Counted from the first letter of the stretch, positions 1 through 34,180 are shown. The stretch is 64,000 nt of DNA from Dipteris shenzhenensis (GCA_047967505.1 CM106538.1), one strand, 5' to 3'. Notes: generated by a model not told the origin, from the letters alone. Program-made: numbers and translations.

Positions 1-3000
1 ATGGCAGTGATGCCAATCTCATGCAGGCACCTACATAATGACACTAAGATCAACAAACTCACATGTGGACACCATTCTCCTATGATCACTGGAATACCCC
101 ACCTAGAATAGTAGGGTAAACATTTGTACAAGTGGAGAATGGCAGGGTGCCGATCTATTATTAGGCCCTAGAAAATGGCATTGAGAAGCCTAAACTCACA
201 TGTGCATGCTTCTCAATGCCATTTTCTAGGGCCTAATAAGAGATTGGCACCACTGGAGAATGGATTTGTGTCAATCTTTGTGGAGAATGCCACCAGTGGA
301 GAATGACAGTGGTGCCAATCTCATACCAAGACCTTAAAAATGGCACAAGGAATCCTAAACTCACATGTGCATTGGCACTCTTGCCATTATACTACTGCAC
401 CCAATAAAATTTGTGGAATGTCAATCTACAAGTTTAGTTTATCTAGACTGCCACCAGTGGAGAATTGAACTGATGCCAATCACATGCAGGCAACTACATA
501 ATGACACTGAGATCCTCAGACTCACATGTGGATTGGAATCGGGCACCATTCTCCTATGATCCTTGGAATACCCCTCCTAGAATATTAGGGTAAAGATTTG
601 TACCAACGGAGAATGGCAGTGGTGCCAATCTCTTATTAGGCCCTAGAAAATGGCACTGTGAAGCCTAAACTCACATGTGCAACCAATAAAATTAGTGGAA
701 TGTCAATCTATAGGTTTTGTCTAGATTACCACTAGTGGAGAAGCCTAAACTCACATGTGCATTCTTCTATGTAGTGATCACTGTCTCCGCTGTGTACAAA
801 TGTTCACCACTCTCCTATGATCACTGGAATACCCCTCCTAGAATAGTAGGGTAAACATTTGTACAAGTGGAGAAAAGTGGTGCCAATCTCATACCATGAC
901 CTGAAAACATGCACAAGGAATCCTAAACTCACATGTGCATTGGCACTTTTGCCATTATCCTACTGCAGCCAATAAAATTAGTGGAATGTCAATCTATAGG
1001 TTCAGTTTGTCTAGATTACCACTAGCGGAGAATGGCAGTGGTGCCAATCTCTTATTACGCCCTAAGAAATGGCATTGAGAAGCCTAAACTCACATGTGCA
1101 TTCTTCTATGTAGTGATCACTCTCTCCGCTGTGTAGAGATCATATGGAATTGTGTCAATCTCTTATAAGGCAGTGGAATGTCAATCTATAGGTTTAGTTT
1201 GTCTAGACTACCACTAGTGGAGAATGGCAGTGATGCCAAACTCATGTTGGCACCTACATAATGACACTAAGATCATCAAACTCACATGTGGAATGGAATC
1301 GGACACCACTCTCCTATGATCACAGGAATACCCCTCCTAGAATAGTACGGTAAACATTTGTCATTGAGAAGCCTAAACTCACATGTGCATTCTTCTATGT
1401 AGTGATCACTGTCTCCGCTGTGCAGAGATCATATGGAATTGTGTCAATCTCTGTGGAGAATACCACCAGTGGAGAATGGTAGTGGTGCCAATCTCATACC
1501 ATGACCTGCAAACATGCACAAGGAATCCTAAACTCACATGTGCATTCTTCTATGTAGAGATCACTGTCTCCGCTGTGTAGAGATCATATGGAATTGTGTC
1601 AATCTCTGAGTTCATCAAACTCACATGTTGATTGGAATCGGACACCACTCTCCTATGATCACTGGAATACCCCTCCTAGAATAGTAGGGTCAACATTTGT
1701 ACAAGTGGAGAATGGCAGTGGTGCCAATCTCTTATTAGGCCCTAAGAAATGGGAAGCCTAAACTCACATGTGCATTCTTCTATGTAGTGATCACTGTCTC
1801 CACTGTGCAGAGATCATATGGAATTGTGTCAATCTCTGTGGAGAATGCCACCAGTGGAGAATGGCAGTGGTGCCAATCTCATACCATGACCTGATAACAT
1901 GCACAAGGAATCCTAAACTCACATGTGCATTGGCACTTTTGCCATTATAGAATGCCACCAGTGGAGAATGGCAATGTTGCACAAGGAATCCTAAACTCAC
2001 ATGTGCATTCTTCTATGTAGTGATCATTGTCTCCGCTGTGTAGAGATCATATGGAATTGTGTCAATCTCTGAGTTCATCAAACTCACATGTGGATTGGAA
2101 TCGGACACCACTTTCCTATGATCACTGGAATACCCCTCCTAGAATAATAGGGTGAACATTTGTACAATTGGAGAATGGCAGTGGTGCCAATCTCTTATTA
2201 GGCCCTAAGAAATGTCATTGAGAAGCCTAAACTCACATGTGCATTCTTCTATGTAGTGATCACTATCTCCGCTGTGCAGAGATCATATGGAATTGTGTCA
2301 ATCTCTGTGGAGAATGCCACCAGTGGAGAATGGCAGTGGTTCCAATCTCATACCATGACCTGATAACATGCACAAGGAATCCTAAACTCACATGTGCATT
2401 CTTCTATGTAGAGATCACTGTCTCCGCTGTGTAGAGATCATATGGAATTGTGTCAATCTCTGAGTTCATCAAACTCACATGTGGATTGGAATCGGACACC
2501 ACTCTCCTATGATCACTGGAATACCCCTCCTAGAATAGTAGGGTGAACATTTGTACAAGTGGAGAATGACAGTGGTGCCAATCTCTTATTAGGCCCTAAG
2601 AAATATCATTGAGAAGCCTAAACTCACATGTGCATTCTTCTATGTAGTGATCATTGTCTCCGCTGTGTAGAGATCATATGGAATTGTGTCAATCTCTTAT
2701 TAGGCCCTAGAATGTCAATCTATAGGTTTAGTTTGTCTAGACTACCACTAATGGAGAATGGCAGTGATGCCAAACTCATGCTGGCACCTACATAATGACA
2801 CTGAGTTCGTCAAACTCACATGTGGATTGGAATCGGACACCACTCTCCTATGATCACTGGAATACCCCTCCTAGAATAGTAGGGTAAACATTTGTACAAG
2901 TGGAGAATGGAAGTGGTGCCATTCTCTTATTAGGCCCTAAGAACTGGCATTGAGAAGCCTAAACTCACATGTGCATTCTTCTATGTAGTAATCACTGTCT

Positions 3001-6000
3001 CCGCTGTGCAGAGATCATATGGAATTGTGTCAATCTCTGTGGAGAATGCCACCAGTGGAGAATGGCAGTGGTGCCAATCTCATACCATGACCTGAAAACA
3101 TGCACAAGGAATGTCTAGATTACCACTAGCGGAGAATGGCAGTGATGCCAATCTCATGATGGCAACTACATAATGACACTGAGATCATCAAACTCACATG
3201 TGGAATGGAATAGGACACAACTCTCCTATGATCACTTGAATAACCCTCCTAGAATAGAAGGGTCAACATTTGTACAAGTGGTGCCAATCTCTTATTAGGC
3301 CCTAAGAAATGTCATTGAGAAGCCTAAACGCACATGTGCAGGGATCATATGGAATTGTGTCAATCTCTGTGGAGAATGCCACCAGTGGAGAATGGCAGTG
3401 GTGCCAATCTCACACCATGACCTGAAAACATGCACAAGGAATCCTAAACTCACATGTGCATTCTTCTATGTAGTGATCACTGTCTCCGTTGTGTAGAGAT
3501 CATATGGAATTGTGTCAATCTCTTATTAGGCCCTGGAATGTCAATCTATAGGTTTAGTTTGTCTAGACTAGCACTAGTGGAGAATGGCAGTGATGCCAAA
3601 CTCATGCTGGCACCTACATAATGACACTGAGATCATCAAACTCACACGTGGAATGGAATCGGACACCACTCTCCTATGATCACAGGAATACCCCTCCTAG
3701 AATAGTAGGGTAAACATTTGTCATTGAGAAGCCTAAACTCACATGTGCATACTTCTATGTAGTGATCACTATCTTCGCTGTGTAGAGATCATATGGAATT
3801 GTGTCAATCTCTGTGGAGAATGCCACCAGTGGAGAATGGTAGTGGTGCCAATCTCATACCATGACCTGCAAACATGCACAAGGAATCCTAATCCCACATG
3901 TGCATTCTTCTATGGAATACCCCTCCTAGAATAGTAGGGTGAACATTTGTACAAGTGGAGAATGGCAGTGGTGCCAATCTCTTATTAGGCCCTAAGAAAT
4001 GGCATTGAGAAGCCTAAACTCACATGTGCATTCTTCTATGTAGTGATCACTGTCTCCGCTTTGTAGAGATCATATGGAATTGTGTCAATCTCTGTGGAGA
4101 ATGCCACCAGTGGAGAATGGCAGTGGTGCCAATCTCATACCATGACCTGAAAACATGCACAAGGAATCCTAAACTCACATGTGCATTGGCACTTTTGCCA
4201 TTATCCTACTGCAGCCAATAAAATTAGTGGAATGTCAATCTATAGGTTCAGTTTGTCTAGATTACCACTAGCCGAGAATGGCAGTGATGCCAATGGCAAC
4301 TACATAAAGACACTGAGATAATCAAACTCACATGTGGAATGGAATAGGACACCACTCTCCTATGATCACTTGAATAACCCTCCTAGAATAGTAGGGTAAA
4401 CATTTGTACAAGTGGTGCCAATCTCTTATTAGGCCCGAAGAAATGGCATTGAGAAGCCTAAACTCACATGTGCAGAGATCATATGGAATTGTGTCGATCT
4501 CTGTGGAGAATGCCACCAGTGGAGAATGGCAGTGGTGCCAATCTCATACCATGACCTGAAAACATGCACAAGGAATCCTAAACTCACATGTGCATTCTTC
4601 TATGTAGTGATCACTGTCTCCGCTGTGTAGAGATCATATGGAATCCTAAACTCACATGTAGAAGGAGGGAAATTGTGTCAATCTCTGAGATCATCAAACT
4701 CACATGTGGATTGGAATCGGACACCACTCTCCTATGATCACTGGAATACCCCTCCTAGAATAGTAGGTGAACATTTGTACAAGTGGAGAATGGTAGTGGT
4801 GCCAATTATTAGGCCCTAAGAAATGGCATTGAGAAGCCTAAACTCACATGTGCATTCTTCTGTGTAGTGATCACTGTCTCCGCTGTGCAGAGATCATATG
4901 GAATTGTGTCAATCTCTGTGGAGAATGCCACCAGTGGAGAATGGCAGTGGTGCCAATCTCATACCATGACCTGATAACATGCACAAGGAATCCTAAACTC
5001 ACATGTGCATTGGCACTTTTGCCATTATAGAATGCCACCAGTGGAGAATGGCAGTGATGCACAAGGAATCCTAAACTCACATGTGCATTCTTCTATGTAG
5101 TGATCACTGTCTCCGCTGTGTAGAGATCATATGGAATTGTGTCAATCTCTGAGTTCATCAAACTCACATGTGGATTGGAATCGGAAACCACTCTCCTATG
5201 ATCACTGGAATACCCCTCCTAGAATAGTAGGGTGAACATTTGTACAAGTGGAGAATGGCAGTGGTGCCAATCTCTTATTAGGCCCTAAGAAATGGCATTG
5301 AGAAGCGTAAACTCACATGTGCATTCTTCTATGTAGTGATCACTGTCTCCGCTATGTAGAGATCATATGGAATTGTGTTAATCTCTGTGGAGAATGCCAT
5401 GAGTGGAGAATGGCAGTGGTGCCAATCTCATACCATGACCTAAAAACATGCACAAGGAATCCTAAACTCACATGTGCATTGGCACTTTTGCCATTATCCT
5501 ACTGGAGCCAATAAAATTAGTGGAATGTCAATCTATAGGTTCAGTTTGTCTAGACTACCACTAGCGGAGAATGGCAGTGATGCCAACATGCTTGCAACTA
5601 CATAATGACACTGAGATCATCAAACTCACATGTGGAATGGAATAGGACACCACTCTCCTATGATCACTGGAATACCCCTCCTAGGATAGTAGGGTAAACA
5701 TTTGTACAAGTGGAGAATGGTAGTGGTGCCAATCTCTTATAAGGCCCTAAGAAACGGCATTGAGAAGCCTAAACTCACATGTGCAGAGATCATATGGAAT
5801 TGTGTCAATCTCTGTGGAGAATGCCACCAGTGGAGAATGGCAGTGGTGCCAATCTCATACCATGACCTTAAAACAGCACAAGGAATCCTAAACTCACATG
5901 TGGAATGGAATAGGACACCACTCTCCTATGATCACTTGAATAACCCTCCTAGAATAGTAGGGTAAACATTTGTACAAGTGGTGCCAATCTCTTATTAGGC

Positions 6001-9000
6001 CCTAAGAAATGGCATTGAGGAGCCTAAACTCACATGTGCAGAGATCATATGGAATTGTGCCAATCTCTGTGGAGAATGCCACCAGTGGAGAATGGCAGTG
6101 GTGCCAATCTCATACCATGACCTGAAAACATGCACAAGGAATCCTAAACTCACATGTGCATTCTTCTATGTAGTGATCACTATCTCCGCTATGTAGAGAT
6201 CATATAAAATTATGTCAATCTCTTATTAGGCCCTAGAATGTCAATCTATAGGTTTAGTTTGTCTAGACTACCACTAGTGGAGAATGGCAGTGATGCCAAA
6301 CTCATGCTGGCACCTACATAATGACACTGAGATCATCAAGCTCACATGTGGAATGGAATTGGACACCACTCTCCTATGATCACAGGAATACCCCTCCTAG
6401 AATAGTAGGGTAAACATTTGTCATTGAGAAGCCTAAACTCACATGTGCATTCTTCGATGTAGTGATCACTGTCTCCACTGTGTAGAGATCATATAGAATT
6501 GTGTCAATCTCTGTGGAGAATGCCACCACTGGAGAATGGTAGTGGTGCCAATCTCATACCATGACCTGCAAACATGCACAACGAATCCTAAACTCACATG
6601 TGCATTCTTCTATGGAATACCCCTCCTAGAATAGTAGGGTGAACATTTGTACAAGTGGAGAATGGCAGCGGTGCCAATCTCTTATTAGGCCCTAAGAAAT
6701 GGCATTGAGAAGCCTAAACTCACATGTGCATTCTTCTATGTAGTGATCACTGTCTCTGCTGTGCAGAGATCATATGGAATTGTGTCAATCTCTATGGAGA
6801 ATGCTACCAGTGGAGAATGGCAGTGGTGCCAATCTCATACCATGACCTGAAAACATGCACAAGGAATCTTAAACTCACATGTGCATTGGCACTTTTGCCA
6901 TTATCCTACTGCAGCCAATAAAATTAGTGGAATGTCAATCTATAGGTTCAGTTTGTCTAGATTACCACTAGCGGAGAATGGCAGTGATGCCAATCTCATG
7001 ATGGCAACTACATAATGACACTGAGATCATCAAACTCACATGTGGAATGGAATAGGACACCACTCTCCTATGATCACTTGAATAACCCTCCTAGAATAGT
7101 AGGGTAAACATTTGTACAAGTGGTGCCAATCTCTTATTAGGTTCGAAGAAATGGCATTGAGAAGCCTAAACTCACATGTGCAGAGATCATATGGAATTGT
7201 GTCGATCTCTGTGGAGAATGCCACCAGTGGAGAATGGCAGTGGTGCCAATCTCATACCATGACCTGAAAACATGCATAAGGAATCCTAAACTCACATGTG
7301 CATTCTTCTATGTAGTGATCACTATCTCCGTTGTGTAGAGATCATATGGAATTGTGTCAATCTCTATGGAGAATGCCACCAGTGGAGAATGGTAGTGGTG
7401 CCAATCTCATACCATGACCTGAAAACATGCACAAGGAATCCTAAACATGTCTCCGCTATGTAGACATCATATGGAATTGTGTCAATCTCTGTGGAGAATG
7501 CCACCAGTGGAGAATGGCAGTGGTGCCAATCTCATACCATGACCTGAAAACATGCACAAGGAATCCTAAACTCACATGTGCATTGGCAATTTTGCCATTA
7601 TCCTACTACCATTGTCTGCTAGTGGTAATGTGCATTCTTCTATGTAGTGATCACTGTCTCCGCTGTGTAGAGATCATATGGAATTGTGCCAATCGCTGTG
7701 GAGAATGCCACCAATGGAGAATGGTAGTGGTGCCAATCTCATACCATGATCTGCAAACATGCACGAGGAATCCTAAACTCACATGTGCATTCTTCAATGT
7801 AGAGATCATTGTCTCCGCTGTGTAGAGATCATATGGAATTGTGTCAATCTCTGAGTTCATCAAACTCACATGTGGATTGGAATCGGACACCACTCTCCTA
7901 TGATCATTGGAATACCCCTCCTAGAATAGTAGGGTGAACATTTGTACAAGTGGAGAATGGCAGTGGTGCCAATCTCTTATTAGGCCCTAAGAAATGGCAT
8001 TGAGAAGCCTAAACTCACATGTGCATTCTTCTTTGTAGTGATCACTGTCTCCATTGTGTAGAGATCATATGGAATTGTGTCAATCTCTTATTAGGCCCTG
8101 GAATGTCAATCTATAGGTTTCGTTTGTCTAGACTACCACTAGTGGAGAATGGCAGTGCTGCCAAAGTCATGCTGGCACCTACATAATGACACTGAGTTCA
8201 TCAAACTCACATGTGGATTGGAATCGGACACCACTCTCCTATGATCACTGGAATACCCCTCCTAGAATAGTAGGGTAAACATTTGTACAAGAGAATGGTA
8301 GTGGTGCCAATCTCTTATTAAGCCCTAAGAAATGGAAATGAGAAGCCTAAACTCACATGTGCATTCTTCTATGTAGTGATCACTATCTCCGCTGTGTAGA
8401 GATCATATGGAATTGTGTCAATCTCTGTGGAGAATGCCACTAGTGGAGAATGGCAGTGGTGCCAATCTCATACCATGACCTGAAAACATGCACAAGGAAT
8501 CATAAACTCACATGTGGATTAGCACTTTTGCCATTATAGAATGCCACCAATGGACAATGCAGTGGTGCACAAGGAATCCTAAGCTCACATGTGCATTCTT
8601 TTATGTAGTGATCACTGTCTCCGCTGTGTAGAGATCATATGGAATTGTGTCAATCTCTGAGATCATCAAACTCACATGTGGATTGTAATCGGACTTGTAA
8701 TCGGACACCACTCTCCTATGATCACTGGAATACCCCTCCTAGAATAGTAGGGTAAACATTTGTACAAGTGGAGAATGGCAGTGGTGCCAATCTCTTATTA
8801 GGCCTTAAGAAATGTCATTGAGAAGCCTAAACTCACATGTGCAGAGACCATATGGAATTGTGTCAATCTCTGTGGAGAATGCCACCAGTGGAGAATGGTA
8901 GTGGTTCCAATCTCACCTAATGACCTGAAAACATGCACAAGGAATCCTAAACTCACATGTGCATTGGCACTTTTGCCATTATTCTATTGCCATTCTCCGC

Positions 9001-11950
9001 TAGTGGTAATATGCATTCTTCTATGTAGTGATCACTCTCTCCACTGTGTAGAGATCATATGGATTTGTGTCAATCTCTGTGGAGAATGCCACCAGTGGAG
9101 AATGGCAGTGGTGCCATTCTCATACCATGACTTGAAAACATGCACAAGGAATCCTAAACTCACATGTGCATTGGCACTTTTGCAATTATCCTACTGCCAT
9201 TCTCCGCCGCTAGTGCTAATGTGCATTCTTCTATGTAGTGATCACTGTCTCCGCTGTGTAGAGATCATATGGATTTGTGTCAATCTCTATGGAGAATGCC
9301 ACCAGTGCAGAATGGCAGTGGTGCCAATTTCATACCATGATCTGAAAACATGTACAAGGAATCCTAAACTCACATGTGCATTGGCACTTTTGCCATTATC
9401 CTATTGCCATTGTCCGCTAGTGGTAATATGCATTCTTCTATGTAGTGATCACAGTCTCTGATGTGTAGATATCATATGGAATTGTGTCAATCTCTGTGGA
9501 GAATGGCAGTTGTGCCAATCTCATACCATGACCTGAAAACATGCACAAGGAATCCTAAACTCACATGTGCATTGGCACTCTTGCCATTATCCTACTGCAG
9601 CCAATAAAATTAGTGGAATGTGAATCTATAGGTTTAATTTGTCTAGATTACCACTAGCGGAGAATGGCAGTGATTGCCAATCTCATGCTTGCCCTAAGAA
9701 ATGGCATTGAGAATCCTAAACTCACATGTGCATTCTTCTATGTAGTGATCATTGTCTTCGCTGTGTAGAGATCATATGGAATTGTGTCAATCTCTTATTA
9801 GGCCAATCTCTTATTAGGAGAATGGCAGTGGTGCCAATCTCATACCATGACCTGAAAACATGCACAAGGAATTGTAAACTCACATGTGCATTGGCACTTT
9901 TGCCATTATCCTACTACCATTCTCCGCTAGTGGTAATGTGCATTCTTCTATGTAGTGATCACTGTCTCCGCTGTGTAGAGATCATATGGATTTGTGTCAA
10001 TCTCTATGGAGAATGCCACCAGTGGAGAATGGCAGTGGTGCCAATCTCATACTAGGACCTGAAAACATGCACAAGGAATCCCAAACTCACATGTGCATTG
10101 GCACTTTTGCCATTATCCTACTGCCATTCTCCGCTAGTGGTAATGTGCATTCTTCTATGTAGTGATAACTGTCTCTGCTGTGTAGAGATCATATGGAATT
10201 GTGTCAATCTCTGTGGAGAATGCCACCAGTGGAGAATGGTAGTGGTGCCAATCTCATACCATGACCTGAAAACATGCACAAGGAATCCTAAACTCAGATG
10301 TGGATTGGCACTTTTGCCATTATAGAATGCCACCAGTGGAGAATGGCAGTGGTGCACAAGGAATCCTAAACTCACATGTGCATTCTTCTATGTAGTGATC
10401 ACTGTCTCCGCTATGTAGAGATCATATGGAATTATGTCAATCTCTGAGATCATCAAACTCACATGTGGATTGGAATCGGACACCACTCTCCTATGATCAC
10501 TAGAATACCCCTTCTAGAATAGTAGGATAAACATTTGTACAAGTGGAGAATGGTAGTGGTGCCAATCTCTTATTAGGCCATAAGAAATGTCATTGAGAAG
10601 CCTAAACTCACATGGCCAATAAAATTAATGGAATGTCAATCTATAGGTTCAGTTTGTCTAGATTACCACTATTGGAGAATGGCAGTGATGCCAATCTCAT
10701 GCTGTCTAGACTACCACTAGTGTTAGGCCTAAGAAATTGCATTGAGAAGCCTAAACTCACATGTGCATTCTTCTATGTAGTGATCACTATCTCCGCTGTG
10801 CAGAGATCATATGGATTTGTGTCAATCTTTGTCGAGAATGCCACCGGTGGAGAATGGTAGTGGTGCCAATCTCATACCATGACCTGAAAACATGCACATC
10901 CTAAACCCACATGTGCATTGGCACTTTTGCCATTATCCTACTGCAGCCAATAAAATTAGTGGAATGTCAATCTATCGATTTAGTTTGTCTAGATTACCAC
11001 TAGTAGAGAATGGCAGTGATGCCAAACTCATGCTGGCCCTAAGAAATGGCATTGAGAATCCTAAACTCATGTGTGCATTCTTGTAGAGACTACCACTAGT
11101 GGGGAATGGCAGTGATGTCAATCTCATGCTGGCAACTATATAATGACATTGAGATCATCAAACTCACATTTGGACACCACTCTCCTATGATCACTGGAAT
11201 ACCCCTCTTAGAATAGTAGGGTAAACATTTGTACAAGTGGAGAATGGCAGGGGTGCCAATCTCTTATTAGGCCCTAAATAAATGGCATTGAGAAGCCTAA
11301 ACTCACATGTGCATTCTTCTATGTAGTGATCACTGTCGCCGCTGTGTAGATATCATATGGAATTGTGTCAATCTCTGTGGAGAATGGCAGTGGTGCCAAT
11401 CTCATAGCATGACCTGAAAACATGCACAAGGAATTCTAAACTCACATGTGCATTGCCACTTTTGCCATTATCCTACTGCAGCCAATAAAATTAGTGGAAT
11501 GTCTAGACTACCACTAGTGGAGAATGGTAGTGATGCCAATCTCATGCTAGAACCTACGTAATCACACTGAGATCATCAAACTCACATGTGGATTGGTAGG
11601 ACACCACTCTACTAGAATACCCCTCCTAGAATAGTAGGATAAACATTTGTACAAGTGGAGAATGGCAGTGGTGCCAGTCTCTTATTAGGCCCTAGAAAAT
11701 GGCATTGAGAAGCCTAAACTCACATGTGCATTCTTATTAGCATCAGTGCCCTTCTCTAGAAGGTCAGGTGAGAAAACTCTCATGTGATAACCTTCACATA
11801 AGGAGAATGGCACTGGTGCCATTCTCTGATTCTCTGCAATCCATGTAATGAATCGAACTTCTGCCATTCTCCTTAACATCATGGAGGATGGCACCAGTGG
11901 CATTATCCTGAAACTCTCACGGAGGATGGCACTTGTGCCATTGTGAACAA
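1..11950. repeat. Complex satellite-like array; ancestral ~465-bp trimer of ~155/161/149-bp monomers, heavily shuffled, open at window start
   Basis: Recurrent boxes GGAGAATGGCAGTGGTGCCAATCTC and AAACTCACATGTG throughout; near-complete trimers at ~5250-5711 and ~6657-7120; copies decay toward 11,700-12,030. Confidence 0.97.
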
Positions 11951-12239
11951 ACTCACAATCCATGTGTTCAATGGCATTTGTGACACTCTTCTAACATCAT
12001 ATTATGTTGGAGAATGGCACGAATACCATTCTTTATTATAACCATCTTAACTTTGATATTGTGTATATTTGCTTACTGTGTTGGTGTAGTTTTTCATAAT
12101 GCATATATAAGTTGCTTCGCCTTGGTTATTTTGTTAATAGAAGTTGCATTGTGGTTGTAATATTTCCTACTACAGTTATGATTTTCTATTATACATTTCA
12201 TTGTGTCCTTGGTTCTTTTGTTAACAGAACATTGCAAGA

Positions 12240-15200
12240 ATGGCTAGCAAGGGAAAGAGAAAGGTTCGAGAGGTGTCAGTTTATGATGGAGTTAGTTCTG
12301 GAAGGGGATGGTTTTTGGATATATACAATAACGAACTCCAAAAACTCCATAAAGTGCATTGTTTTGTGAACATCCAAGGAAAAACTTTTGAAGATGTTGG
12401 ACAAGTTAAAGAGATGGGGGATACCGAGAAAGACAACGTTCCTTGTCTCAAAATTCATACATTGGGAGGCAATGTGTATCAATTGGATCCTGCTTGTTTT
12501 GATCATGCGAGGATGAATGCTACTGGGGAGGACACGATGATATCTAGGGGTTGGATTAATGAGCCAGAAAATTATACCAACCGACAGATATTAGAAAGCT
12601 TTGATTTGGTAACAAAAGGGATAAAGCAAGATATAAAAAAGAGTAGAAACGTTTCGAAAAGAACCAAGAAAAGTGATGTTGAGGGATCAAGCTCTCAAGT
12701 GTCTCAGAACACATTGAAAGAGAAGGCTAGAGAGACCGGTGAGGAGGAAACAATAGGTGAGAAGGAAATAAGGTCAGATGGAAAAACAAGCATTGGGGAT
12801 AAACTGGAGGCTAAAGATAAAGAGACAACTTTAGGAGGAAAACAGGGAGGTATGGGAATAGTCACTGATGGAACTGGAAGTGGAGGTGATGCAACGGGGA
12901 GTGGTGAGACACATATAATAGGACATGGTGAGAAATCATATGAAGCAACTATCATCCTGTATGAGAAAATCCAGCCAGATGTTGACTTTAAGGCACTACA
13001 AAAGAAATTGGAAAGGAAGGACACAAGTATGACAGGCTTGATGGAGTACGTAGAGTACTTCCCATTTGGTTTGGAGTTTGAGGTGTTGATCCCAGTGATG
13101 AATTGCTTTAGAGCACCAAGCCAATATGTGTACAGGACATCGACCCTCAGCTATGTCAGTGACTTGGTCAAGAGTTTTGCAATGAATGCACGACCTCCTG
13201 CAACATGTGCATATCTTATGCCTTACCACATAGGCACAAATACTCCGATGTGCAAGGAAGAGATAAAGGTGGAAAAGTTAAAGGAGTATAATTATTGGAT
13301 TCTCGCAGGGCAGCATTCGATTTATGCTACAAGGATGTTTATAACTAAAGCACATGGTGAAGCCTTCAATCAATGAAAAGGTTTCTATACACGGAGGAAG
13401 GCGAGAATTGTTGTCAATGCACCAGTTGAAGCAAGTTGTAAGATATCATCAATGGCCAACATGGAGGCACAGACCGTTTTGAAAAATCAACCATATATCG
13501 ATATCTTACAACACCTAAGGGCGCAGTGGATTGCATTCGGCGGATGACCAAAGAAACCAGCCCAAGGCCTTGTCAAAGGGCATAAAGATCGACAAATTTG
13601 GGATGTGAGTAATAAACTTTGCTTTGTATGCATTTTTTATTTCAAGAATGTTTATGGCTTTGTAAAAGAAATGATAGTAGTGTCAATTCCCTGATGTGAG
13701 AATGGCACTAGTGCCATTCTTCTAGTTACCAAGTCATGCTTTTGACATGGTAATGGGAGAATCGCACTAGTGTCATTATTATCTCTATTACATGATTTGG
13801 ATTAGAAGAATGTCTAAGATGATTTTGATTTTTTTATATAGAATTTTGTAGGAGTTGCAAGCGTATCGATGGGCGCAAACTTTGCTACCAAGGACACACA
13901 CATGGCCACATATGATGATGACATCTATGAACAATGGATTAGGATTTTGACATTGGTGAAGCAGGGTGATCTTGAGGGTCGAAATCCCACAATAACATAT
14001 ATGAGGTGTCTGCTAGGATTGGAAGATGAAGATGTACGTGCACTTCAAGCAGAGATTGAGTCTAAAGAAATAGTCTTGGTCAAGTCAAGCAAAGACAAGG
14101 ACTCCATTGAAATGTCTCAATGGGCAATGGAGATTAAGCATGATAGAGCCCTGAAAGAAGCACTCATCAAGGAGTTCAACTCACGTCACCCTTCGCCCCA
14201 ACATCAAACATGGGATGCCCTTGCAACTTACTTCAAAATTGATTCAATTGTTTATCAGAGCTTCAAGGGTTCATGTGAGTCATGGGTCAAAGAGAAGCTA
14301 CAAGTTGGCAAGTCCACACCTGATTTCCCAAAAGCTGCATCAATCTATGTTGATTGGGTGATTAGTTCAATAGAGGGTAACAAGTCTACATCGCAGTCTT
14401 GTTTTCCTTAGACAATTATTCAAGTGAACATGGAGATGGAGGGGGAGAGCTTTCTAACACGTCACTCTAAGGGACAACTTTCAATCAGCTTGTGTGTGCT
14501 TGACACCTCAGAGGGATCTACCAAAGGCATGTGTTGGGATAAGGATGCCTTCAAGAAGTTGCTTTGTGGCTTGATGGAGACCGTTGCCACTCCATCACAG
14601 TATGTATTGCTATCATTTATGACAATGATAGAGATGGTAAATCTCAAGGAAGCAATGATAGAGGCTCGATTTTGGCATAGAAGGTTTGTGGGTGTTATTT
14701 ATGAATCGGATAGTGCACAAAAGGGTTTGTCTGAGACCTTCTGTTTTTTGTCATTTGTGAGCTCACATGATGGGTTTGATGGGATTTGAGCACATGTTAG
14801 AAAACACAAGGCCATACACAATAATTGAGGACAATATTCTTTATTCTGATGAGGATGATGAGTATGAAAAAGAGGCCGTTGTGAAGCATGGCATCATCAA
14901 GGAGTGCATCAGGTGCTATTGTAGTAGGGAACATGAAGTTTTTGTTGACGTCTTTACTAATGGATGTGTGGCATTACAAGCATTGTCAAGCAAAAGAAAA
15001 GTGATCTCACTAGTGAAGACATCCCAACAGGCGACAGAGGTCGAGGCTATGTGTGTGGCACATGCATCAAATAATCCCCATATTAAGATTTGGTCTAGCA
15101 TTGAGAGGCCTCTTGAGACGCATAGAGCTGATTCACCTATCGATGAAGGAATTAAAGAGGGTGAGCATCACATTAAAGACTTGCGACCTTTAACTGAAGC

Positions 15201-15255
15201 AGATCTTGAAGCTATCCCAAAGATTACATTGGAAGATTTGGAGCAAGGTCTTTAG
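12240..15255 (+). pseudogene. Spliced gene with ParB/Srx-like domain (exon 12240-13604) and degenerate beta-class amino-methyltransferase-like domain (exon 13842-~15247); disrupted
   Basis: Frame continues through TGA 13374-76 and TGA 13545-47 to donor GTGAGT at 13605; acceptor AG 13840-41 rejoins in phase 0; in-frame TAG 14409-11; +1 frameshift near 14780. Motifs YWILAGQHSIYA, SLCVLDTSEG..WD, EHEVFVDVFTNG..ALQALSSKRKVI. Confidence 0.7.
13605..13841 (+). other. GT-AG intron carrying copies of the array palindrome
   Basis: GAT|GTGAGT donor, T-rich tract and TAG|AAT acceptor restore the frame (WD|NFVG); perfect 22-bp palindrome AGAATGGCACTAGTGCCATTCT at 13699-13720. Confidence 0.8.
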
Positions 15256-15384
15256 CTACTCATTTATGCCTTGTGTATTCAGTTTCAAAATAATATGACT
15301 TTTATGGATTTTCTCGATTGCACATACTCTCATTATATTAAAGAGATTAAACATTAGGTATGATAAAATTGTGTGACATAATGA

Positions 15385-15910
15385 CATGGGGAATGGTACT
15401 AGTGTCATTGTCCCTATGTCGGGTTATACGTAAGAGGTACTATTAACATTTTATGTGACTTCATATGGAGAATGGCACTAGTGCCATTCTCTCTTTGTGG
15501 TTATGTAGAAATGGTAATACTGTTATGTTCCTTTCTTGAATCTATGTTAGTTGAAAGCATTACAGAGATTAAAAATTGTATAGTATTAACTATGCTACCA
15601 AAGTTTTGATTTGGGTGCTTTCTACAAATCTATTGGACCAAAGTAATACAGTATCTATGCTTTCAGATCATGCATTGTACATTTCTTTTGGGACATGGGG
15701 GGAGGCACTAGTAGTATTCTCTCCTCCTAATGAGGGTATAGAGAAAGGCACTAGTGGCATTCTCCATAACCTTATATGTAAAATGGCACTAGCACCACCC
15801 CAAGAGAAGAATGGCACTATTGCCATTCTCTCTATGAGTTCAGAGAGAAAGGTTGCACTATTTGCATTCTCAATTGACTTTAGAGAGATTGGCACCAGTG
15901 CCATTCCCCA
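15385..15910. repeat. Cluster of about eight degenerate copies of palindrome GAGAATGGCACTAGTGCCATTCTC
   Basis: Perfect 24-bp copy at 15468-15491; variants near 15389, 15700, 15742, 15781, 15806, 15853, 15885. Confidence 0.85.
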
Positions 15911-16075
15911 AAAAGACAATGGAATCAGTGAACGGCGATGGATAATGTCCGTACTTTATTTTTATTTATTAGTTTCATAAGCTTTTGTGCTTCGACATTG
16001 TTGAATACACTCTAAAGAATCAAAATATTTCTATATTCCTCAACTTCCATAGGGACCAATGATGCATGGAAGGAT

Positions 16076-17338
16076 ATGGAGACATCAAATGTAGAGGACA
16101 ACATACCACCCAAAATGGGGACTATCAATTACACGATGGATACAAGAGGTATAGAAGAAAACATAACCCCAAAAATGGAGAAAATTGCAAGGAATATCAC
16201 GAATCCTATACTTTTAGAAGAGAACATGGATGAACGTACTGTCTCAACATTGGGGACAAGACTAGATAATCTTATTGTTGTTGCAAACATGTATGAAATC
16301 ATAGCACCTGACAATTTGGATGAGTCAGAAGCCAGCAACTTCAAGGAGAATTTGGATCTATATCCACATACAATTTCTTTGGATATGCCACGATTAACAA
16401 TCATATTAGACTTGAATGGCCTGTTATTAAGTCGCTGCCTATTCAAGTCTCTAATACATCTGTCTATTATGCACGGCAAAAATAGTTATATGGTTGTTCG
16501 TCCTGGGTGCATAGAATTTCTTAAAATCTTGCTACAAAGATTTAATGTAGGTATTTGGTCAACTACGATGGAGTATAACGTACTTGATATCGTAGGAAAG
16601 CTACAAAATTATGCAAATGAGAGCCTCCCTTTCTTTGTTATATGGTCTCAGCAAGGATGCTACACTTACAGTAAGACGAGGATAAATAGGCCTGACAAGG
16701 TTGGTGTTGAGGCAATGTTCAAACCCTTAGCAAAAATCTCAAAGGAATTTGGATGTGATGCTAGAAGGACAATCCTTGTTGATGACTCCCCATACAAGGC
16801 TTGCATTAGCCCTCCATCAAATTGCATATTTCCTTCAACATTTGATGTACAAGACAAGGATGATAATATTCTACTGAGAGAGTTGATGCCGTACTTACTA
16901 CAACTCGATGAGACTAAAGATGTGCACAGCATGATTGAGACAAATCGGTATGGACAATTACCTGTGATGGAGGGGCATAAGGATTTCAACCTTGTCCACC
17001 AAGTAATTGATGAATGGAGGGAGGCAAATCATGCATGGTCAAGAATGGAATATAAAACAAGAAATCTTCCTCTTGTAGATCAACTAAGAGAGAGGGATAT
17101 AGGTGGTAATATAGAACCAAAGGGTGTACACCCTAAGACAACCCATGGTGGTGATGGCCAGGTGCTTAAACTCAATGCATCCCAAATAAGGCTTTTAAGG
17201 AATGCTCCGCAACTCTCTAGCATGAATGCTATGCAAGTTTCTCAATTGGCTATAGACCTAGGGTACAAAGGTCGCTATATCAAGAAATACATTGCTAAGG
17301 GCTACATAAACCGACTACAGAATGCGTATTTTTCATGA
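16076..17338 (+). CDS. FCP1/SCP-like (NIF) HAD-superfamily phosphatase domain protein; probably an internal exon starting at 16053
   Basis: Intact 420-aa ORF with TIILDLNGLL (motif I variant), VRPGCIEFL, FNVGIWS, MFKPL, TILVDDSPYK; acceptor TTCCATAG ends at 16052. Confidence 0.85.
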   Translation: METSNVEDNIPPKMGTINYTMDTRGIEENITPKMEKIARNITNPILLEENMDERTVSTLGTRLDNLIVVANMYEIIAPDNLDESEASNFKENLDLYPHTISLDMPRLTIILDLNGLLLSRCLFKSLIHLSIMHGKNSYMVVRPGCIEFLKILLQRFNVGIWSTTMEYNVLDIVGKLQNYANESLPFFVIWSQQGCYTYSKTRINRPDKVGVEAMFKPLAKISKEFGCDARRTILVDDSPYKACISPPSNCIFPSTFDVQDKDDNILLRELMPYLLQLDETKDVHSMIETNRYGQLPVMEGHKDFNLVHQVIDEWREANHAWSRMEYKTRNLPLVDQLRERDIGGNIEPKGVHPKTTHGGDGQVLKLNASQIRLLRNAPQLSSMNAMQVSQLAIDLGYKGRYIKKYIAKGYINRLQNAYFS

Positions 17339-17398
17339 AGGTACATATGTCAAAGTGTTTTTTGATTTTATCTCAAGTCTATATAACTGTTGTTGCAG

Positions 17399-17962
17399 CT
17401 AATTGAATTTGTCTTTTGTGATGTAGATAGATATACGTTCAAATCAAGCTTGAGTAGGTACATACCAGAACGAGATCCATTTGGACCACCAAAGTTACCT
17501 GTCCCTATCAACGAAGTGTTCTGGATAAAAAATGTGGCTTTCGAGGTGCATGAGTCAACCATTACAGGTGCTGGCTTGGGCTTGTTTGTGCATGGCTCCA
17601 TAAAGAGAGGGACTACTATTCTCCATTATGGAGGTGACAAGTACTCCTACAGAGACTGGAAGGAATTATGTAGAGTTCATCCAAGGCTAAAGAAGTACTC
17701 TATCCAAGAGGACCCCACTGTCCCTATGAAGAATACGGTGCATATTGTTGGTGATGTTCAATATGGCAATGTGGTAGGATTTATTAACAGCAATAGAAAT
17801 ACCAATGTAAAGCCAAATGTTTGTTATGTATTTTCCCCTGATGTTCCACCTTGGTATGACCCCATGATGAACATAGATATTGCAGAATATGGTCACATTT
17901 GTATTGAATCCATAGATGATATACATGCAGGAGAGGAGCTATTTGCAGACTATGAGTTTTGA
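17399..17962 (+). CDS. Minimal SET-domain lysine methyltransferase-like exon
   Basis: ESTITGAGLGLF, ILHYGG, GFINS..PNV, DIHAGEELFADY; no Cys-rich pre/post-SET; ORF-track start is TTG, but a TTGCAG acceptor ends at 17398. Confidence 0.85.
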   Translation, partial: LIEFVFCDVDRYTFKSSLSRYIPERDPFGPPKLPVPINEVFWIKNVAFEVHESTITGAGLGLFVHGSIKRGTTILHYGGDKYSYRDWKELCRVHPRLKKYSIQEDPTVPMKNTVHIVGDVQYGNVVGFINSNRNTNVKPNVCYVFSPDVPPWYDPMMNIDIAEYGHICIESIDDIHAGEELFADYEF

Positions 17963-18469
17963 ATAACAATATTGTATTTCTTTATACAATCATTACTTAT
18001 GGGAATTACTACTTTCTTGCCAACTATGTAAATTGGTGCGTAATTGTTGTGTGTGAATAATATGCAAACATGTTCATAACTACATTCATAATGTATTTTG
18101 AAGGAGTGTCTCTCATGCCATTCTTTCGGGTGCCATTCTCTTTGGGGCTAGAAATTGAGAGTTTCTTTGGAATCATGATTTATTTCAGGGATTTCAATGG
18201 TGCATCAACAAGTTGTTATGTTTTCATCCTAAAGTGTACTTTTTTACTTTGCAATGAGTAATCAACATCACATGTAAAGTTATCATTTTACAATAATGCT
18301 AGTCAGTCTAAATATTGAAAGTGCACAATAAATGATTGTCATTGCCACCTAAATTACATCAAATGCTTGTCATTGCCCATTGATTTTCCATCAACTACAT
18401 ATCTTGCATTCATTCTCCTCAACTACATATCTTGATTTTCCATCAACTACATATCTTACTAAGTTAAAG

Positions 18470-19242
18470 AGCCTGTGCGTTTTCATTGCAATACTCATGG
18501 TTTGTGGTCATTTGAATATTTGAAGCCTCCATTTGTGTGCAAGTTAAAGGACTGCTACAGGTGTTGCTGTGAATACCATGTGCAGATGTCCTTTCTGAAA
18601 GATGCATTGAACTTGATGCGCAATTAGTATAGCCTTTTGATCATCATCCTCAATAATGGCACCAACTCATTGAAGTTGTTTCAAGAGCACCTGCATACAG
18701 TTCAGAAAGGTTCCCAGATCTTCATTGTCATTCATATGGAGGTTGTAAAGTTGCTGCTTGAGATTTGCTTTGGAATGACACATTTTTGTTTCGAATAGTG
18801 CCTCTAGAATTGCCCAATTTGCTACTGCTGACTTTGTAATCTCAAGATGGTGGAAGTACTCTCCTAGGGCTCATCCCATCATGCCAATTGCTTTATCATT
18901 ATTTTTCTTCCACGATCGTTTCTCTACTTCACCGGTGGTCGGCTCCTTCTCTATTCTAGACACAATCTCCCACAAGCCCTTTTGCATAAACCATAATTTT
19001 GCTGACAGCTGCCCTCAAAGTTTCAGCCAGTAAATCTGACGACGGACGTCTCTGCCTGAGAACACACAGTAGCTAGAACTTCTAAGGGAACTTTTGACCA
19101 AGGATGTATTTTGCTCCTTGGCCTCTTGGTCTTCCACACCAACACATGCCCACCGTTGATATCAAGACTGCCTAAGCTAAATCTTCTAATCTTGCTCATG
19201 AATTCTTCTTCTCTGAATCTTCACAACCACGCTCTGATACCA
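18470..19242 (-). mobile_element. Ty1/copia gag remnant with tRNA-Met PBS
   Basis: PBS TGGTATCAGAGC on minus strand at 19231-19242; minus translation includes MQKGLWEIVS..WKKKNDKAIGMM (copia gag-like). Confidence 0.7.
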
Positions 19243-20249
19243 AATGACTCTTTGAATTCCAACATTTGTTTGCAGAGTCTTTTGGTCTATTGAGTTTGTT
19301 GGCTTACAAGACCAAAAGACTCTACTAACGACTGTACCTTTGATGTGTAGCTGCAACAATAGGAACCTATCTAATGGACCTCGATTTCATGGCTCTATGG
19401 CTCGTGATAATGACAAAAGGGCATATAAAATCATCATGTAGGGCTTTGTAGTCATGAATGATCACTCCCATGCAAACACCGCCTCCATGCAATGTCTAGA
19501 ATTTTCTCTTAAACTGCCAAGTGTCCACAACTCTCCATAATCTCCAATCATGCTTGACCTATTGCATGGTCCAATGACCAAGTGTCTGTGGCACTTATCA
19601 GCCAATCACAAGCCTATCACCAAACCTTAGTCATGACACCACTCCTACGAGGATCACCTCCCCAACAATGTATTGAGTGCCAAAGTTCCAAGAGCCCTAT
19701 GATATGCTACAAACAAAATGATTCAACGGAAAGACATCTACCAAGAATTAACGCATGTTTCAAAAGCTAAAAATGATTAAAAATATAGCCATTCAAAGGT
19801 AGCAACAACTTACTATGTCAACAAAAATTTAGTGCAATTTCCTTATTTAAATCCAATTGCTTTGCCCTATACATCTGTAATACCCATGGATAAAGAAATT
19901 CTTTTTTGTCTTTCCAAATGCAATAAATTTTCCTCTCCAATGCTTTGAAATGCCCTCTAACTATTGTTGGCTTCTCAATGTGGTGCTTCTTGTGAGGGTT
20001 GCATTGTCGCCCATGGGAATAGACCTAACTTCATTGGGATGCAATTGTCAACCTCATTAGAACGTAATTGAGTCAACCTCATTACGAACATGGTGTATAG
20101 TAATTGAATCAAAGCAATACTTCATCCTTCTCATTTTTCACATTTCCAAAACATGGTTTCTATCACCTAGTTTGAATTAAGACATAAAGAGCAAAATAAA
20201 ACACACCCCAAAGGACAAAACTAAGAAATCTCTCCTTGCAACTTTATTT

Positions 20250-20252
<3 letters not shown>

Positions 20253-20306
<54 letters not shown>
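20253..20306. repeat. (TC)n microsatellite
   Basis: Direct reading. Confidence 0.98.
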
Positions 20307-20310
<4 letters not shown>

Positions 20311-20764
20311 ACCTATTTTCACCTTCCTTGTCATTGATTCCGTCTATCCCTCAAGCCTTTCTTATCTCTACTCTTATACTTCTGCCAATGTCTTGCTTCC
20401 ATTTATCCCTCCTCAACCTCCTACCACCATCCCCACCTATGAAAATGGCCCTATCCACTTTGGGGTGGTCCAAACTTACCTTACGCATTCTAACCATGTT
20501 CCATTCTGTCAAGTGGCAAAGGGATTGGTTGTCAAAACATTATATTCTACCAAGATGAGGGAAACATTATATGTACTAAAGCACACACATGCAACTACAA
20601 GATGACTCTACAAACAATTGAGTGTGACAACATTGCCCTAGAATCTAAAAGCATAGACATTTGATGCGACTTTGGTATGGGTAATGGACATGGCTGGCTT
20701 TTGGTACTGCATGAAATAACACTGTGAACACATGGTGATTCTCCTTGGGAATGCCATCAAGAAT

Positions 20765-22140
20765 TCATACCAATTGTGTAGCCTAGAAACATAACGTTGG
20801 GTGTTTGCGTGATGATGGAAGTCACATAGGAGGTTAACACTCAAACTGTACACTAAAACTAGCAAACTAATCTAAAGCAACAAATCTACCCTACAATGTA
20901 AAGCAACATACAACCTAACCTAACCTAAAGAAGACAACAAACGACAACAAAAGAAAATATACAACTCAACTCTCTCTCTCAACATCAACTCTTCTACTCC
21001 ACACCCTCCACTTGAGGTTTATGGGCCTCTAGACACCTCACGGTACTAAGCTTTCGTGCAAGCACTACTCACTCATCGTTGCTTGTTGTGAATGGTAACT
21101 ACTTCTCAAGGATGGCTAGGTACCTTTGCCACACTCAAGCAATCCTAGAAAAGAAGCAAGGTATGCCACCCCAAGAGCATCTATCTCTAGACTACAAAAG
21201 GGGCTATCTCAACCAAGTAATGTAAGCATAAGAACTCTCAACAAGCCTCTCACACTCATGAAAGAATCTCACACTCACAAGCCTTCAAGCTCAAGAGAGT
21301 CACTTGTAACCCTATCTCATGAGTTCAACATATGGGTTTTTATTAATTCCGTTACTTATAGATTTATATATACATAAGGAAATAAATTAAGATCCAAAGG
21401 TTAATATACAAAAGGGAGTTTTATATTTAAAAAGGCCGAGAAGCTCCCAATATGCAACATGCATGTTTGGGTAGAGTAGTTTATGTCAAGGGAAATTTTA
21501 GAATGCTATTGATGGAATTTTCCTTTTGTGATAAGTATGTAGTCTTCTTGCATTTTCTTGAATTCTAGACAATTCTATAAAGTTGTTCTGTCTTTATTAC
21601 TCTCATTGTCCTTCACATTAGGACGCTATGCTTTCTTGCATAAATAGATCTCTAATCTTGATGATTTGACTTTGTCTTTTAGTCTTGTCATTCTCTTTTT
21701 TGGTCTTGGATTGCATTAAATTAGTGGTGAATGATTATTTTTTAAGTTGATCACTCTTATCCTTGGTGCTTTTAGTTCTACTCTGTCTATTTAGCACTAC
21801 CTTTGGGAGTGTAAATAGGCCCCAAATAGGCCAAGATCATTTGGACTAGGATTGCAGATCTACTTCAGAAGATCTTCCTCCTCACTTTTCATCATTACTT
21901 GGGATTATGTGGTCTAGCTCTCCCTTACTTGGCCTCAAATCTTTTATGGGAGTCAAGAATCCTTCTGAAATACCTTCGTGTAGCTCCAAGATGTGTAGTT
22001 TTGAAAGCTTGAGTGTGTCCCTTTTTCTTTGTACACGCCTTTAGATGCTTTAATGGACACTTAATGGGAGATTATAGCCTCGGGGGGGTCACCTTGGAAA
22101 ATGTAAGTCTACCATGAGAGTTCGAAATGTGGGGTAGTAT
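20765..22140 (-). mobile_element. Possible long LTR with degenerate PBS
   Basis: TCATACCA (minus TGGTATGA) next to TG at ~20775; non-coding LTR-like composition; far boundary uncertain. Confidence 0.3.
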
Positions 22141-32769: not shown

Positions 32770-34180
32770 CTTTATAAAGGGGCAAGCCATTCTCATCTTG
32801 CGGCCATTCTTCTGATCTTGAATATACAAGCAACTGATGGATGGTCAAACACTAGTGTTTCATCCCTCCTTTGGTAAGAGTTTTGATGTAGTCTAAACTA
32901 TACTTTAAATTTTTGCTTCAAATGTCCCAGGTCACTCCAAACACTACTTCCAAAAGGAAATACAATGCCCGACTTAGGAAAGGATGCAAAGACGATGCTG
33001 GCATCGTTAGGAATGGATTACAAGAATTTATGCATGTCCCAATGATTGCATCCTTCATAGAGGAACATACAACCACTCTACAAGCTGTCCACAACATGGT
33101 GCATCTTGACATCGACAAGACACACAAGGACAAGATTCTCGAAAAGGTGATGCGACACATGCTAATCCTAACATGCATCACACACTTGTTTCATTGTGGA
33201 TCGTTAGCTGGACTTATGGATTGGCATTCTCACAACTACTCAATGGAAGGAATATTGAGGATGCCTGTGGATGGAAAGGCTTGGAGATACATAGAGAAGA
33301 GGTGGCCAGAGTTTGGGCTTAATACTCGTCACTTGCATCATGGGCTAGCTATGGATGGTGTTAACCCCTTTGGACATCAGCCCACATTGTGGCCCACATG
33401 GCTAGTTGTAGTCACAATATACAATATTCCTCCTTCGATGACCATAAAGAAAGGGCATTTGATGTTGGCACTCATTGTGGCGGGAAAGCACAAGGTGAAA
33501 ACATGGATGTGTATCTAGTCCCTTTGGTGGACGAGTTGCAAATTTTATGGAATGGCATGCAAGTTCATGACATTTCAAAGCCTTTGGGTCAACATCATTT
33601 TCAAGTGAAAGGCTGATGTGGACCATGCATGATTATCCTGGGTTGCATGATTGCTCATGTACCAATTTTCTATTCCTCTTAATTCTCTTCTGCCTAATAA
33701 AATGCAAGATGTAACTTTTGTCGATGCTCTTTGCCTTGGTGATCTTTCACTTTTGCAGGTGGCAGTCAAAAGATCTAAACATGGTTGTATATGAGAAGTA
33801 CATGCGGTTTCTTCTTATGGACCATCTGTATCGTGTGGATCCATCTTTTGGGGAGCCACAATTAGTTCCTATTCCTTCAGTCATGAGATCCGAAGATTGG
33901 GAGTGACAATGGCATGATCCAGAAGTCCAAACACCTCCACCTAGCATGCAAAGTGTCTCCATATTTTATACTCTTCCTTACAAGAGATAACTCAAATTCA
34001 CATATCTGTTGAACCCAATGGATGTAGTAAAAAATGTGTCTAAAGTTTATGGAAGCATATGATTGGGGATAGAAACACCCCAAAGGCACGAGCTGAGTTG
34101 AAAGTGATGAAAACCAAAAGACCCTATAATTGACACAAAATGATTCAGGTAACATTACTTCCACTTCAACTTGATCCATT
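32770..34180 (+). mobile_element. CACTA/EnSpm transposase (Tnp2/Transposase_21-like) pseudogene
   Basis: LYKGASHSHLAAILLILN, YACPNDCIL, DGKAWRYIE..WPEF, GLAMDGVNPF, IYNIPP, MDVYLVPLVDELQILW; frameshifts, stops and GT-AG intron remnants. Confidence 0.88.

Follow-up and report, generated by a model that had tools for sequence, protein, structure and literature searches.

Among the systems described so far, the closest to the locus reported here are the accessory genes carried by the giant Plavaka (EnSpm/CACTA) transposons of the red alga Bostrychia (bioRxiv 10.1101/2025.02.11.637652). As far as this preprint describes their domains, PAG2 combines a PF01555 methylase with a SET domain, PAG3 combines an N-terminal ParB-like domain (best HHpred match 7BNR) with a 2-oxoglutarate (2OG)-oxygenase, inverted-repeat tandem arrays adjoin PAG3, and most copies are degenerate. 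Chromatin-acting transposon passengers are rare, and besides the red-algal PAGs they include the anti-silencing factors of VANDAL elements and the SET genes of Harbinger and Helitron elements, as the same source presents them (bioRxiv 10.1101/2025.02.11.637652). ParB-linked adenine methylases occur in chlorophytes, chytrids and haptophytes, and land plants are not among these hosts in the account of Iyer et al. (2016), as far as it is drawn on here. The locus described in the following lies at 12240 to 17962 of a stretch of 64,000 nucleotides (nt) of eukaryotic DNA from the fern Dipteris shenzhenensis (GCA_047967505.1 CM106538.1; this whole stretch is called the window), and in this locus ParB-like, methyltransferase (MTase)-like, NIF phosphatase-like and SET parts follow one another. 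With moderate confidence, we explain the locus as one decayed member of a gene family that is dispersed in many copies in spore-bearing land plants; it would be a passenger gene of a large DNA transposon whose product would target the element's own palindrome array.

The likeness to the Plavaka genes PAG2 and PAG3, going by the domain descriptions in the preprint, concerns the ParB-like fold, the putative methylase-type fold and the SET domain, and extends to an inverted-repeat array, the degenerate copies and a CACTA-type transposase nearby; the best match of the ParB-like domain is in both cases the same PDB entry family. Unlike the Plavaka genes as described there, the fern locus joins the ParB-like and MTase-like parts, has no 2OG-oxygenase and adds a plant NIF domain, its MTase part is undetectable by Pfam and lacks the catalytic motifs, and the host is a land plant. 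The original prediction for this DNA, which had been made from the sequence alone and had proposed a single four-domain chain, did not recognize the architecture. This needs to be qualified, as MTase plus SET and ParB-like passengers have their precedents in the red-algal elements so far as the preprint covers them, and in the literature searched no paper was found that describes the architecture for land plants. Bacterial and phage fusions of ParB_N with N6_N4_Mtase (PF02195+PF01555) contain two such folds in the same order. In contrast to these fusions, the fern gene has no Pfam match to either family and lacks the catalytic motifs; it is interrupted by spliceosomal introns, it begins with a long N-terminal extension, and NIF and SET parts are added.

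Five long open reading frames (ORFs) lie collinearly on the plus strand of the window (12225-13376, 13842-14411, 14761-15255, 16016-17338 and 17387-17962). Two homologues are of particular use for their interpretation, namely P0019, an annotated protein of 990 amino acids (aa) of the fern Adiantum nelumboides, and P0028, an Adiantum protein of 750 aa. The parts of the locus are the following:

12240..13604, plus strand: exon 1, 455 codons, with a conserved N-terminal region, a low-complexity linker and the ParB-like domain
13077..13481, plus strand: core of the predicted ParB N-terminal/sulfiredoxin-type fold, model residues 41-175
13605..13841, plus strand: intron 1, 237 nt, GTGAGT...TATATAG, phase 0
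13842..15247, plus strand: exon 2 of about 469 codons, with a helical part ahead of the MTase-like part; P0019 and P0028 align along this exon
14412..15100, plus strand: region resembling N6/N4-DNA methylases, without their catalytic motifs, as suggested by a structure match of the homologue P0019
15248..16052, plus strand: putative intron 2, 805 nt, GTCTTT...CCATAG, phase 1
16053..17338, plus strand: exon 3 or NIF ORF, with the NIF domain at 16394-16924, a conserved C-terminal tail and TGA at 17336-17338
17387..17962, plus strand: SET ORF, with the SET domain at 17573-17953 and no ATG ahead of the domain

The gene start at 12240 is the position at which residue 1 of the relatives P0015, P0017 and P0019 aligns, and the conserved N-terminal region of exon 1 spans about 12240-12630. 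There is no second copy of the gene within the window, as all seven of the seven segments compared match themselves only.

Three in-frame stops and a single extra base make the window copy a pseudogene, which in annotation should not be called as four genes. Exon 1 contains TGA at 13374-13376 and TGA at 13545-13547, and exon 2 is broken by TAG at 14409-14411 and by the extra base at about 14781-14784, which changes the frame. When contigs of four public runs (X1 to X4) were aligned to window positions 11500-18800, all four lesions were found open in near-identical copies of X1 to X3: copies of X1 and X2 have C for T at 13374 and 13545 (CGA, not TGA), copies of X1, X2 and X3 have G at 14410 (TGG, not TAG), and copies of X1 and X3 lack the one base at 14781. 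The comparison of copies yielded 137 differences, of which 40 were listed; 39 of these 40 are coding, 16 being synonymous and 23 non-synonymous. Most listed differences are T or A in the window versus C or G in the other copy, a bias that would be expected of the transition-driven decay of a silenced repeat.

In case of the ParB-like part, no Pfam family was found, even at E<=10, in P0012, which is exon 1 read through with X at its stops, and a profile search of the PDB with a 32-row alignment (A1) gave no significant match (one, E 0.24). An AlphaFold2 model of 12957-13604 that was computed from A1 reached a mean predicted local distance difference test (pLDDT) score of 87, and the top rows of a Foldseek search with this model are all ParB/sulfiredoxin proteins (PadC, Noc, ParB, KorB, sulfiredoxin and SbnI; best E 1.4e-3). 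With VIA-align, the model superimposes on ParB of Myxococcus xanthus (7bnk_B) at Z 10.5 and a root-mean-square deviation of 2.5 Å with 95 residues aligned, and 21 chains are found at Z>=8, rows 1-12 of which are ParB, Noc, PadC or KorB. At the level of the predicted structure, the ParB N-terminal fold of 12957-13604 is therewith confirmed. The window carries the motif YWILAGQHS at 13293-13319, and the family consensus in A1 is YWIISGQHSIxAAK, with H120 being invariant and G118 and Q119 being nearly invariant. We take this YWI(I/L)(S/A)GQHS signature to be distinct from the arginine-rich GxxRxxA (CTP-binding) box of canonical ParB, to which the GQH motif would be positionally equivalent.

For the MTase-like part, residues 349-625 of P0019 in its Atlas model match all ten listed PF01555 clusters, with TM scores of 0.51-0.60 over 179-238 residues, and in two of these ten clusters 69-83% of the members also carry ParB_N (bacterial or phage fusions). 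Upstream of NIF, there is no Pfam match at E<=10 in the window pieces, P0013, P0019 or P0028, a sequence search of the PDB with P0019 returned 0 matches, and an AlphaFold2 model of the middle part of P0019 (4 rows) was unusable, with a pLDDT of 35. A sulfotransferase match in a PDB profile search with alignment A3 (E 0.009) was taken as chance, and a DUF3105 match on exon 2 (E 0.027, below cut-off) was ignored. N6_N4_Mtase enzymes have the catalytic motif (D/N/S)PP(Y/F/W) and the AdoMet (S-adenosylmethionine)-binding motif FxGxG, and neither motif occurs in the three forward frames of 13842-15252, nor in P0019 or P0028. The window segments CVLDTSEG (14493-14516) and FVDVFTNGC (14941-14967) presumably are placed where the methylase motifs IV and I would be. 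As the catalytic motifs are absent, the domain would be catalytically dead, if the fold is right.

The NIF domain is readily recognized by Pfam (PF03031; E 6.2e-19, 68.7 bits at a cut-off of 21.8, with positions 1-159 of the 160-position profile covered) and comprises residues 127-303 of the 16016-17338 ORF. DxDx(T/V) is the catalytic motif of NIF/FCP1-like phosphatases. The window NIF domain contains no DxDx[TV] and has LDLNGLL at 16403-16426 in its place, and in the same way LD[LIV]NG[LIV]L is common to 11 of 11 plant NIF relatives, none of which has DxDx[TV]. As this LDxNGxL variant is present throughout these relatives, the NIF module looks host-derived and of plant type. An Asn replaces the second catalytic Asp in LDLNGLL, and a whole plant subfamily thus may have altered or lost its phosphatase chemistry. 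The likeness to plant NIF/FCP1-homology proteins (e.g. of Hibiscus, Elaeis and Theobroma) comprises the Pfam NIF domain and the DxNG variant. The differences are that the identity is 28-43% in the domain only, and that 0 of 11 have a ParB-like, MTase-like or SET part; the 11 longer relatives of the NIF ORF are all NIF-only or carry NIF with unrelated domains. A metagenome scan returned no relatives of this ORF.

The SET domain is likewise found by Pfam (PF00856; E 2.3e-9, 38 bits at a cut-off of 22.4, with positions 1-104 of the 105-position profile covered) and corresponds to residues 63-189 of the 17387-17962 ORF. The segments GAGLGLFV, FINS…KPN and ELFADYEF are kept in three of three family members, and two relatives, P0108 and P0109, are 73% and 55% identical, respectively. 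The Atlas clusters that come nearest to the SET ORF consist of small SET proteins (143-202 aa; score 0.95-0.97, by features only), and the resemblance to small SET proteins of giant viruses and haptophytes likewise is one of size and language-model features, not of alignment. Unlike small stand-alone SET proteins, the fern SET ORF is preceded by the NIF exon and contains no start codon. No SET relatives were found in viral contigs (SET ORF scan) or in metagenomes (SET alignment scan). The feature matches of the SET ORF had prompted the idea of an endogenous giant virus, which was rejected, as intron 1 is conserved, the NIF domain is of plant type, and the viral-contig scan with the SET ORF gave no relative. 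Just downstream of the SET ORF, at 18000-22000, the GC skew turns clearly negative (-0.14 to -0.18), which might mark a minus-strand gene; a Pfam scan of the ORFs of at least 75 aa in this region found no family.

How are these parts connected? The sites of intron 1 are GGGAT/GTGAGT at 13604/13605 and TATATAG/AAT at 13841/13842, with the same phase on both sides. In three of three mapped relatives that share exon 1 only, the likeness is lost within 2 to 16 codons past 13604/13605 (at 13610 in P0015, 13607 in P0017 and 13652 in P0027), the ORFs of P0015 and P0017 diverge at W-D/V(S), i.e. at GT(GAGT), and the likeness of the Adiantum protein P0028 resumes exactly at 13842. Sequence and homologues together thus make intron 1 a well-supported prediction. 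Up to this point, the original prediction is partly confirmed, and the lesions within exons 1 and 2 are additional to it. Its ORFs are real, collinear and on one strand, Pfam bears out its NIF and SET calls, the model and the fold search agree with its ParB-like call, and its phase 0 intron at 13605-13841 is the one seen in the homologues; its MTase-like call is backed by the predicted-structure match of P0019 to PF01555, but by none of the sequence searches, and the catalytic motifs are absent. The second junction is GAG CAA G/GTCTTT at 15247/15248 with CCATAG/GG ACC AAT at 16052/16053, and here sites and phase 1 are as had been proposed, but direct support at these sites is missing. That one GT and one AG agree in phase is by itself weak support, as this occurs by chance in about one of three cases, and intron 1 is the one junction with independent support. 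The segment 15248-16052 is collinear in a DNA contig (record 13 of X2). The sole support for a join of the middle part to NIF is the gene model P0019, which contains the N-terminal region, the ParB-like part, the second half of exon 2, NIF and the C-terminal tail; its residues 717-987 align to 16505-17329 and end there. Since the gene start, intron 1 and the order of ParB-like, MTase-like and NIF parts recur in P0019, a three-part chain of a ParB-like, a dead MTase-like and a NIF-like domain is plausible, and we slightly favor it.

The gene belongs to a family with many members. With P0012, 75 relatives were found at E<=1e-3, of which 33 reach <=1e-10 and 10 reach <=1e-30, in a search space of 1.84 billion representatives, the conserved core being residues 244-455 of P0012 and a second conserved block being residues 1-140. 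The members with a species name are five proteins of the fern Adiantum nelumboides, each on a different contig, and proteins of the lycophyte Diphasiastrum complanatum and of the liverworts Calypogeia fissa and Riccia sorocarpa. A Pfam scan of 14 relatives found no family in 11 of them and NIF in P0019, and two of the 14 are chimeric, one with a Ty3-integrase SH3 piece and one with a hAT dimerization piece. In the public runs, the numbers of contigs at 99+, 95-99, 90-95 and <90% identity are 2, 12, 8 and 2 for X1 and 5, 16, 7 and 6 for X2. The presence of contigs at several levels of identity within single runs likewise points to many copies.

Two further features are relevant for the proposed nature of the locus as a transposon passenger:

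1..11850, no strand assigned: array of diverged units of 125-240 nt, with the inverted-repeat core GGAGAATGGCAGTGGTGCCA in each
32892..33613, plus strand: pieces of a transposase of the CACTA/EnSpm type (Pfam Transposase_21, E 2.3e-20 and 2.7e-7)

The array is longer than 11.8 kb and extends past the window start; it includes the repeat families D1-D12, with Tandem Repeats Finder periods of 125-236 and families of 16-25 copies. The core of the array unit is TGGCA-N4-TGCCA. With at most one mismatch, GGAGAATGGCA has 94 matches in the window; 89 fall within 1-12000, and past 16000 there are none. Outside the array, too, the perfect 20-bp palindrome GAATGGCACTAGTGCCATTC recurs with its variants, namely within both introns and at one place near 18100: intron 1 has copies of the palindromic motif at about 13697-13720 and 13755-13775, and intron 2 is filled with the motif and contains an inverted pair (15449-15501/15797-15849). 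In X1, the depth of the array contigs is about 4-5 times that of the gene contigs (88.9 versus about 13-20). The transposase fragments, which represent two of 82 ORFs scanned in 29-48 kb, lie 15 kb downstream of the gene on the same strand. The palindrome array upstream and the CACTA transposase fragments downstream suggest a transposon passenger gene like PAG2 and PAG3 of Plavaka, as these are described in the preprint.

The intact form of the gene may be pictured as follows. Exon 1 would encode the conserved N-terminal region and the ParB N-terminal fold with its G-Q-H motif, and exon 2 would encode a helical part and a fold like that of N6/N4-DNA methylases, from which the catalytic motifs have been lost. 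In ferns, the next exon would contribute an NIF/FCP1-like domain of plant type, in which DxNG replaces DxDx, and these three parts probably make up a single protein of about 1,350 aa, with its end at 17338. Another 50-90 bases on follows the SET exon, which may be either an alternative last exon or a small SET gene in its own right that belongs to the same cassette. The protein would be an accessory gene product of a large DNA transposon, whose ParB-like and N-terminal parts may bind the palindromes of the >11.8-kb array and of the introns, and whose NIF-like and SET modules may then act on RNA polymerase II or on chromatin at the element. As a consequence, the transcription or silencing state of the element could be set.

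Several observations weigh against this explanation. With respect to the element, no terminal repeats or target duplications that bound the gene and the transposase were found within the window, a Copia reverse transcriptase (RVT_2, 25690-26483) lies between the two, and the palindromic motif is absent beyond 19 kb, which leaves the membership of the gene in such an element unproven. The 16:23 ratio of synonymous to non-synonymous differences indicates at most mild constraint. The MTase-like identity is a structural lead from the predicted model of one homologue, and this Atlas model of P0019 has a whole-protein pLDDT of 0.50 only. P0019 is moreover an automatic gene model in which the first half of exon 2 and the beginning of NIF are missing (only profile positions 42-160 are present), and thus may itself have been stitched together from a decayed copy. 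None of the joins 13604 to 13842, 15247 to 16053 and 17340 to 17399 occurs in the contigs of X1 to X4, none of which is on record as RNA and in which the reported joints are short-sided or lie in the repeated motif; the NIF exon is without cover in the X3 and X4 contigs, which was not used as evidence. Finally, the NIF ORF has a possible start of its own, ATG 16076, and could be a separate gene.

What alternatives exist for a passenger gene with a three-part chain? The locus could in principle be a cassette of two or three neighboring genes, one for the ParB/MTase-like protein, one for the NIF-like protein and one for a small SET protein of about 170-195 aa whose ATG has been lost here. We consider this somewhat unlikely. 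The reading frames stop at 15253 and 17336, and ATG 16076 is positioned just inside the NIF ORF. P0028, at 750 aa, and the scanned liverwort and lycophyte relatives contain no NIF domain. The small size of the nearest Atlas SET clusters, by features only, would fit as well, and the SET relatives P0108 and P0109 are ORFs of 171 and 194 aa that begin with Met, with the Met of P0108 falling at a Leu of the window (…SSLSRYIPE); however, these Met starts were assigned by the ORF caller and thus prove no start. P0019, on the other hand, joins the middle part to NIF, and in the NIF ORF the domain is preceded by 126 open codons, with a good acceptor 12 codons in.

The original prediction goes one step further than the three-part chain, as it joins all four domains in one protein of about 1,540 aa by the splices 13604 to 13842, 15247 to 16053 and 17340 to 17399, and in this form we regard it as quite unlikely. 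It is true that all parts are on one strand and in the right order, that the SET ORF without a start needs either an upstream exon or a lost ATG, and that MTase plus SET has a precedent in PAG2, as described in the preprint. The first three parts of such a chain are plausible in view of P0019, but the inclusion of SET is unsupported. The sites of the third junction are indeed AAG/GTACAT at 17340/17341 and TTGCAG/CTA at 17398/17399, and an extra base is indeed needed, as the donor lies two bases behind the in-frame TGA 17336-17338 and the frame must change; but record 15 of X2, the sole contig that spans 17183-17556, aligns with 0 gaps and lacks this base. The resulting intron of 58 nt (17341-17398) would be very short for a plant. 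P0019, which has no SET domain, closes where the window NIF ORF does, within one or two codons of the equivalent of 17338 and after a conserved tail: it ends with RYIKKYIAKGYINRLQNAYFS before its stop, as compared to PVIKAHEAKNYIKQLKSQYCIR before the stop in the window, the 21-23 residues that precede the differing ends (…KSQYCIR versus …NAYFS) being conserved. A close at the 17338 equivalent counts against the NIF-to-SET join by the original prediction's own standard. Among 264 candidates of 336-2000 aa, furthermore, no long protein with a SET domain of the window type was found at E<=0.001. A phase 1 combination that needs no extra base would be AAAG/GTCGCT at 17270/17271 with TGTAG/AT at 17426/17427, although its donor GTCGCT is poor. 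This possible alternative acceptor coincides with the point at which three contigs of X4 and one of X3, with a SET exon of about 98% identity, break away from the window, namely at 17426 and not at 17398. Upstream of 17426, however, the letters of these contigs are two different sequences that have 0 matches in the window at <=3 mismatches; as the X3 and X4 contigs diverge there, the SET exon exists also in other contexts, either spliced or rearranged.

That the locus is merely a chance pseudogene in repeat-rich DNA, derived from an ordinary, non-mobile host gene family, is very unlikely, because the conserved intron position and start across ferns, the presence in ferns, a lycophyte and liverworts, and the failure to find element ends in the window are opposed by the many diverged copies per run and species, the chimeras with transposon proteins, the decay driven by transitions, and the motif array, which lies next to the gene as well as in its introns.

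The remainder of the window contains further remains of mobile elements and further repeats. Two SH3 pieces belong to such remains, a retroviral-type one on the minus strand (37551-37781) and one of a Ty3 integrase (51535-52080). Direct repeats that resemble long terminal repeats (LTRs) are 98% identical and about 5.6 kb apart (56837-57136/62488-62787 and 57834-58133/63469-63768), and between these LTR-like repeats, 59908-62489 contains nearly perfect inverted repeats of 539-549 nt with 97-99% identity. A further inverted pair of 401 nt (23277-23677/58644-59044) is 96% complementary over a distance of 35 kb.

If the passenger gene explanation is taken to its full extent, the gene family would encode a transposon-borne “self-marking” protein of spore-bearing land plants, whose ParB-like module recognizes the palindrome array of its own element, by analogy a eukaryotic counterpart of ParB/parS. 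A dead methylase fold, a CTD (C-terminal domain)-phosphatase-like module and SET would be brought to the array, in one chain or by alternative last exons, and the element would thereby set its own chromatin state, which would make the protein a land-plant counterpart of the red-algal PAG2 and PAG3 with a new phosphatase module. As a whole, we put this forward as a tentative and rather unlikely view. It would offer a directly testable protein-site pair, namely the ParB-like domain and the 20-bp palindrome. If it is true, the ParB-fold, methylase-like, phosphatase-like and SET parts beside a fern array would extend the idea of chromatin-acting passengers to land plants with huge, repeat-driven genomes.

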